A stretch of 64,000 nucleotides of DNA from Escherichia coli (lineage in GTDB: Bacteria; Pseudomonadota; Gammaproteobacteria; Enterobacterales; Enterobacteriaceae). This document shows positions 21,381-21,472 of the stretch, piece by piece. Within the stretch, counting starts at the first letter, position 1, and each line of letters opens with the position of its first letter. The stretch lies in the NCBI RefSeq assembly GCF_045037415.1, contig NZ_CP173438.1. One strand, 5' to 3'. The notes under the pieces are model-generated. The model was not told the origin of the DNA. It saw nothing but the letters and a program-made list of their open reading frames with translations, and did not search any database. Position numbers and translations under genes: made by a program.

Positions 21381-21472
21381 GGAAGGGGTCCTCCTCATGG
21401 GGGGATACGAGAAACGGGCAATTCTACGGCAAGTCTTCAGGCAGGGAAAATAATCTGACAGAAAATTGCCGT

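Follow-up and report, generated by a model that had tools for sequence, protein, structure and literature searches.

The 92 nucleotides that separate tagK, a sugar kinase gene of the D-tagatose island, from the core gene yhdT carry no intrinsic terminator, belong to an island allele that has replaced the whole of the corresponding K-12 spacer, and contain a promoter-like block that is the most conserved non-coding DNA of the region. The explanation that best fits these observations as a whole, and to which we would assign a probability of roughly 60%, is that of a junction between an accessory island and a core operon, where yhdT-panF-prmA would be transcribed mainly from its own conserved promoter of the sigma-70 type, and read-through from Preg, the promoter of tagR and tagK, would be added to it. 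Control of the core operon by the sugar is, on the other hand, improbable.

Organization of the locus

All coordinates given here (Table 1) refer to the window, meaning the entire 64,000-nucleotide stretch of E. coli DNA that was analysed. On the minus strand, the TGA stop codon of tagK occupies positions 21475-21473 and the GTG start codon of yhdT lies at 21380, with a 92-nt gap between them that the preliminary description of this DNA had delimited correctly. In our alignment, this spacer is nearly invariant among E. coli. According to the PGAP annotation of identical genomes, the YhdT protein is 80 amino acids long. For tagK, the longest open reading frame would start from the ATG at 22483, giving a 44-nt overlap with the end of tagR; the start chosen by PGAP at 22408 yields a protein of 311 amino acids and leaves a 31-nt gap between tagR and tagK. 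As for the start codon of yhdT, GTG is found in the E. coli island allele (21380 in the window), in Enterobacter sp. ENT03 and in one Trabulsiella genome (among the compared loci L006, L007, L008 and L011), and ATG in the K-12-type allele, in the remaining Trabulsiella genomes and in Klebsiella spallanzanii. An in-frame ATG located 18 nt upstream of the yhdT start (21398) is not conserved, and reads ATA in K. spallanzanii.

Table 1. Coordinates of genes and sequence elements around the tagK-yhdT spacer, in RNA-sense order
Feature	Position	Strand	Remarks
accB-accC	accC end ~25309	-	Upstream-most genes
Island-borne replacement accBC terminator	25234-25260	-	CGCCGGG...CCCGGCG then TTTTTATT; between convergent accC and tagE
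tagE	24171-25217	opposite to accC	Convergent with accC
IS1	23353-24120	+	768 bp
Preg promoter	23289-23316	-	TTCAAA-16-TATAGT; source of any read-through
tagR	22440-23270	-	DeoR-family tagatose-responsive repressor
tagK	21473-22408	-	PfkB-type sugar kinase; second gene of reg cluster; PGAP start
tagK-yhdT spacer	21381-21472	-	92 nt
Inverted repeat, left arm	21464-21472	-	ACGGCAATT in RNA sense; directly after tagK stop; E. coli-specific
Candidate -35	21444-21449	-	TTTCCC; 3/6 consensus positions; 17 nt upstream of TAGAAT
18-nt invariant block	21415-21432	-	TTGCCGTAGAATTGCCCG; -10 hexamer and GC-rich discriminator
Putative yhdT -10 hexamer	21421-21426	-	TAGAAT; 5/6 consensus positions
Predicted hairpin	21377-21400	-	CCAUGAGGAGGACCCCUUCCGUGG; -10.5 kcal/mol; pairs yhdT Shine-Dalgarno and GUG start
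yhdT (DUF997)	21138-21380	-	First gene of core yhdT-panF-prmA unit; GTG start
panF	19697-21154	-	Sodium/pantothenate symporter; overlaps yhdT end
prmA	18804-19685	-	Ribosomal protein L11 methyltransferase

The kinase operon had been described as accessory, and it is indeed the tagR-tagK reg cluster of the D-tagatose island, an 8.5-kb element of E. coli Nissle 1917 and phylogroup B2 that is absent from K-12 and is made up of this reg cluster and of the tag cluster tagYABCDE (Ha et al. 2022, PMC9720028; Park et al. 2025, PMC12226905). In strain d1-7 (L002), an intact relative that is 100% identical to the window over tagK-tagR, the full locus between accC and yhdT consists of tagK and tagR followed by divergently oriented genes for an aldolase, an ABC transporter, a kinase and an epimerase. 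The locus in the window sits at the same insertion site between accC and yhdT as the published one, its tagK, tagR and tagE genes are 100% identical to those of intact loci (d1-7), and its Preg hexamers are the same, the published dRNA-seq start site being located 11 nt upstream of tagR (PMC12226905). It differs from the published locus in that an IS1 element replaces 5.5 kb of it, and it is therefore a degraded member of the family with a truncated tag cluster. The replaced segment measures 5,519 bp (positions 14254-19772 of the d1-7 locus, with flanks at 23352 and 24121 of the window), and with it were lost Ptag, the CRP site, the predicted TagR operators tagO1 and tagO2, the tagYABC genes, and all of tagD except ~50 nt. 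There is no target-site duplication at the IS1, as expected of an IS1-mediated adjacent deletion, and not one of the 5426 complete genomes of E. coli has the exact IS1 junction of the window. Preg is intact, 36 bp away from the IS1 end and without a known operator. Based on this gene content, the strain should be tagatose-negative, yet it has kept tagR, tagK and tagE.

Replacement of the accC-yhdT spacer

Against K-12 (L083) and a genome that lacks the island (L001), the homology of the window breaks off precisely at two codons, the stop of accC and the start of yhdT, the latter being changed from ATG to GTG. The island allele replaces the entire 108-bp accC-yhdT spacer of K-12, accBC terminator included. 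In K-12, this spacer is composed of the terminator GGCCGGA-TTT-TCCGGCC followed by TTTTTTATT (T6), plus ~70 nt that extend up to yhdT. The two alleles are mutually exclusive: the island junction is present in 1421 of 5426 complete E. coli genomes and the K-12 type in 4004 (26% vs 74%), so that together they account for 5425 of the 5426. By swapping the whole spacer, the island has removed the strong accBC terminator from in front of yhdT; its far end supplies a new terminator for accC, and its near end what is probably a version of the yhdT promoter. The new accC terminator is missed by the consensus scanner because its loop is 13 nt long.

The two spacer types share their chromosomal position directly upstream of yhdT, and both carry in the same register a -10-like element (TACAAT in K-12, TAGAAT here) with a C-rich discriminator and a TTTCT motif downstream of it. 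Outside this -10 core, however, they are unrelated, and whereas the K-12-type spacer begins with a canonical terminator (d=+40.5), the island type has none. Furthermore, yhdT starts with ATG in the former and with GTG in the latter, and the 5' UTR of the island allele is longer than that of K-12, its Shine-Dalgarno sequence (GAGGAGG) being stronger and, by prediction, paired. A second island haplotype was found in E. coli E69 (L003), whose tagK DNA is 90% identical to that of the window, compared to 99% for the spacer and 97.5% for yhdT; such a difference in identity suggests that recombination has produced a mosaic at the edge of the island.

Absence of an intrinsic terminator between tagK and yhdT

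The preliminary description held that no terminator lies between the kinase operon and yhdT-panF-prmA, and had suggested terminator prediction with folding energies as a check. Two independent scans bear it out, as both returned nothing in the spacer and detected their controls. The consensus scan identified no terminator-like sites on either strand of 21100-21700, and it did recognize the K-12 accC terminator, used as a positive control. The second scan, for which we used our own script to compute a hairpin plus T-tract d-score of the d'Aubenton-Carafa type, yielded exclusively negative values from the 3' end of tagK to the 5' end of yhdT, the best being -25.3, and assigned +40.5 to the K-12 accC terminator and +10.9 to the island-side accC terminator. 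A stable short-loop hairpin is absent from the minus strand of 21340-21505, where the best candidates have loops of 33-40 nt or cover the yhdT start codon, and no U-tract follows the stems, given that no run of at least five Ts occurs within 8 nt of any of them (the tails read UUUCUCGUAU and UUGCCCGUUU). A search of 20900-22000 against Rfam, even at a permissive threshold, returned no match. With regard to hairpin and U-tract alike, the spacer fails as an intrinsic (Rho-independent) terminator, and because none is present after tagK, read-through into yhdT-panF-prmA is mechanistically possible. RNA polymerases departing from Preg (23316-23289) would cross tagR-tagK, meet no intrinsic terminator, and contribute to expression of the core genes. 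We infer both the existence and the size of this contribution, and on the basis of the sequence we regard read-through from the tagRK promoter as plausible.

Such transcripts might still be stopped by Rho. The spacer is C-rich, with 29 C vs 18 G (C/G = 1.6) and up to 20 YC dimers per 78-nt window, so that Rho could halt read-through, and its 92 nucleotides are untranslated; in addition, a hairpin predicted over the yhdT ribosome-binding site could delay ribosome loading. If Rho- or otherwise factor-dependent termination did act here, the two units would be insulated from each other, and yhdT-panF-prmA would be transcribed from its own promoter only. Three considerations, however, speak against such an arrangement, which we hold to be unlikely: for Rho to load and to release the transcript, the untranslated stretch is short, the bias in composition is only modest, and the hairpin lacks statistical support, as detailed below. 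We favor the reading in which polymerases from Preg would pass through the spacer and add to transcription initiated at the yhdT promoter itself.

A conserved promoter-like block upstream of yhdT

The preliminary description noted only an imperfect inverted repeat in the spacer, and overlooked the most conserved non-coding block of the region and the -10-like TAGAAT within it. The organization tagR-tagK-to-yhdT-panF with a spacer of 92-98 nt is shared by the divergent E. coli E69, Enterobacter sp. ENT03, three Trabulsiella genomes and Klebsiella spallanzanii. Across a 2.7-kb alignment of E. coli, Trabulsiella and K. spallanzanii that extends from tagR to panF, the 18-nt block TTGCCGTAGAATTGCCCG is the longest invariant run, whereas only 14% of the third codon positions of tagK are invariant in the same alignment, a difference that argues for strong purifying selection on this non-coding DNA. 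In the alignment of the short spacers, invariance extends to TTTTCCC, TTGCCGTAGAATTGCCCG, the region of the Shine-Dalgarno sequence, and a CTTCC that precedes the start codon.

The hexamer TAGAAT is invariant across the genera that carry the island, and it aligns with a conserved TAnAAT motif that 14 taxa of Enterobacterales, some carrying the island and others not, have upstream of yhdT. The aligned hexamer reads TACAAT in K-12, Salmonella, Klebsiella, Enterobacter, Cronobacter and Intestinirhabdus, and TAAAAT in Serratia and Yersinia; within the TAnAAT motif, all 14 taxa share the A, A, A and T, and conservation of the flanking G and CC is almost complete. We also analysed island-free accC-yhdT spacers, from seven genera (Salmonella, Klebsiella, Enterobacter, Cronobacter, Intestinirhabdus, Serratia and Yersinia). 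All seven have the accC terminator followed by G-TACAAT-(C/T)CCCGCTTTCTTCA or CCGTAAAAT-(C/T)CCC, and the hexamer is located downstream of this strong terminator and ~30 nt upstream of yhdT. An element placed behind a strong terminator in island-free genera must serve yhdT. We also observed that the -10 context of the island allele (CTTGCCGTAGAAT) is closer to that of Yersinia and Serratia (CTTGCCGTAAAAT) than to the Enterobacteriaceae type (GGTACAAT).

A candidate -35 element with the spacing expected for such a hexamer (Table 1) belongs to the TTTTCCC stretch, which is invariant in the four island genera. Neither the island allele nor that of K-12 has a good -35 region. TTTCCC is below the threshold of the consensus scanner, and so is the K-12 allele; indeed, the consensus scan called no promoter either in the spacer or in the K-12 allele, and because it is silent on both, its silence is uninformative with respect to promoter activity. 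Based on conservation, TAGAAT is most likely the -10 element of a sigma-70-type promoter that belongs to yhdT, and the core operon very probably keeps a promoter of its own that is independent of the island. This promoter would comprise the -10 hexamer at 21426-21421 and the GC-rich discriminator, with transcription starting at ~21415 and a 5' UTR of ~35 nt, and its predicted activity would account for most transcription of yhdT-panF-prmA.

Other readings of these motifs were considered. TTGCCG as a -35 hexamer was ruled out, as no conserved -10 lies 17 nt downstream of it, and CCCCAT in the leader was discarded as a sigma-32-type element on sequence grounds alone, since the start site would be expected to fall downstream of the ribosome-binding site. 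The 18-nt block also contains a direct repeat, TTGCC-N6-TTGCC, whose copies are 11 nt apart from start to start, equal to one helical turn, and straddle the -10 hexamer. It could also be a transcription-factor site; no known motif matches TTGCC-N6-TTGCC.

In two further genomes with the island, the spacer between tagK and yhdT is longer, namely 282 nt in Superficieibacter (positions 4934-5218 of locus L005) and 378 nt in Serratia sp. H1w (positions 4934-5314 of locus L009). The latter carries palindromic repeats (CCCTCTCCC...GGGAGAGGG) and a GGCCGG followed by TTTTTTTAT, all upstream of the same -10 hexamer. These expanded spacers indicate that some lineages do carry terminator-like sequence between tagK and yhdT.

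Taken together, these comparisons bear on the possibility that yhdT-panF-prmA transcripts arise mainly, or even solely, by read-through, the native promoter having been displaced by the island and tagR-tagK-yhdT-panF-prmA forming, in E. coli with the island, one operon driven by Preg; this is the proposal of the preliminary description taken to its strong form. The missing terminator and the wholesale replacement of the K-12 spacer would fit such a scenario, and so would the weak -35 of the promoter-like site. Moreover, dRNA-seq of EcN grown on tagatose revealed no start sites in the 8.5-kb region except for those of Ptag and Preg (PMC12226905; raw data in GEO, GSE280463). If that analysis included the spacer, its result counts against an active promoter there, and in favor of read-through as the main source. 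Nevertheless, TAnAAT is retained in genomes with and without the island, and in the latter it sits behind a strong terminator; the invariance of 18 nt of spacer has no other obvious reason; and in Serratia sp. H1w and Superficieibacter, terminator-like and repeat elements lie upstream of the same -10, which implies that co-transcription is not conserved. For these reasons, we find main or exclusive reliance on Preg somewhat harder still to credit than termination by Rho, and we retain the reading in which a promoter in the spacer would provide most of the transcripts and Preg would supplement them. In an RNA-seq study of CFT073, yhdT (c4022) is listed as 9.4-fold up with nitrate.

The preliminary description had gone on to propose that read-through would link core gene expression to an accessory sugar signal. 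The first half of this proposal stands, in that the absence of a terminator makes read-through mechanistically possible, but the coupling itself appears weak. By qRT-PCR, in fact, tagRK was ~2-fold up on tagatose compared to glucose, vs an increase of more than 1000-fold for tagYAB (PMC9720028). Preg would thus be near-constitutive, with activity ~2-fold higher on tagatose, and in this strain the operators have been taken by IS1; upstream of the spacer, no circuit that responds to tagatose survives. A response of ~2-fold at Preg and the removal of the operators by IS1 leave no meaningful coupling of pantothenate transport or L11 methylation to a sugar signal, and we deem sugar control of the core operon improbable.

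Inverted repeat and predicted RNA folds

The inverted repeat noted previously is present, with cgggcaatt at 21415-21423 and aattgccg at 21464-21471 on the plus strand. Its perfect core, GGCAATT/AATTGCC, is 7 nt long with arms 40 nt apart, and a second, mutually exclusive pairing (ACGGCAA/TTGCCGT) can be drawn. The right arm falls within the 18-nt invariant block. At least one inverted repeat of 7 nt occurs in 7% of dinucleotide shuffles of the spacer, and the predicted fold of the 110-nt RNA is not unusual when compared to shuffles (z=-1.27). Furthermore, the sequence of the left arm differs in Trabulsiella, K. spallanzanii and Enterobacter sp. ENT03, with 2-4 of the 7 pairs broken and no compensating change. 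The broken pairs in other genera, together with the z-score of the fold, rule out the inverted repeat as a conserved hairpin; although the sequence does contain it, it barely exceeds chance and is not a meaningful structure. That it might nonetheless act as a functional RNA or DNA element, whether a two-pairing attenuator, a processing site or a protein-binding palindrome, as one left arm with two mutually exclusive partners and the occurrence of two 7-nt inverted repeats in only 1.35% of shuffles might suggest, is very improbable when the left arm is unconserved, the fold is unremarkable and without an Rfam match, and the direct repeat within the promoter block, with its two copies, accounts for both right arms.

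A different structure, the 24-nt hairpin CCAUGAGGAGGACCCCUUCCGUGG, is predicted at the start of yhdT, with the Shine-Dalgarno GGAGG pairing with CUUCC, and CCAUG with CGUGG, which contains the GUG start codon. The same hairpin is predicted in E. coli, Trabulsiella, K. spallanzanii and Enterobacter, whereas the yhdT leader of K-12 (GGGACAAAAAAUG) does not form it. As a regulatory structure that sequesters the Shine-Dalgarno sequence, however, it is unsupported, with no compensatory pairs and z-scores of 0.16, -0.39 and -0.18.

Significance of the junction

In bacteria, it is common for a junction to lack a terminator and for read-through to supplement an internal promoter. The gap between tagK and yhdT is an ordinary operon junction of this kind, and nothing about it will surprise a specialist. 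Like the generic co-directional junctions without a terminator, it has an upstream unit that ends without one and a downstream unit with what appears to be its own promoter in the spacer; it differs from them in that it was created by an island allele and is polymorphic within the species (26% vs 74%). The island, its promoters and its regulator have already been published, and the tagK-yhdT junction, its terminators and the expression of yhdT are not discussed in that work, which accordingly contains no discussion of the missing tagK terminator or of the conserved promoter-like block (PMC9720028, PMC12226905).

Any dependence of the core genes on the sugar is likely to be ~2-fold at most, and is probably gone in this strain, and it is therefore of little importance in itself. 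The junction is of modest use in showing that a common island polymorphism of E. coli exchanges the entire regulatory spacer of a core operon, beyond inserting genes, and in revealing, by phylogenetic footprinting, a probable promoter for yhdT-panF-prmA that simple consensus scans miss. A further-reaching consequence, which we put forward as a rather doubtful conjecture, is that in strains with the tag island, which make up approximately one quarter of E. coli and include most B2/ExPEC, panF and prmA might be expressed unlike in K-12-type strains, being partly co-transcribed with tagR and tagK and preceded by a foreign-type yhdT leader in which the -10 context CTTGCCGTAnAAT resembles that of Yersinia and Serratia, the start codon is GTG, and the Shine-Dalgarno sequence is paired. 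If this were true, such differential expression of panF and prmA would mean that an accessory island has rewired a core operon in a lineage-specific manner.
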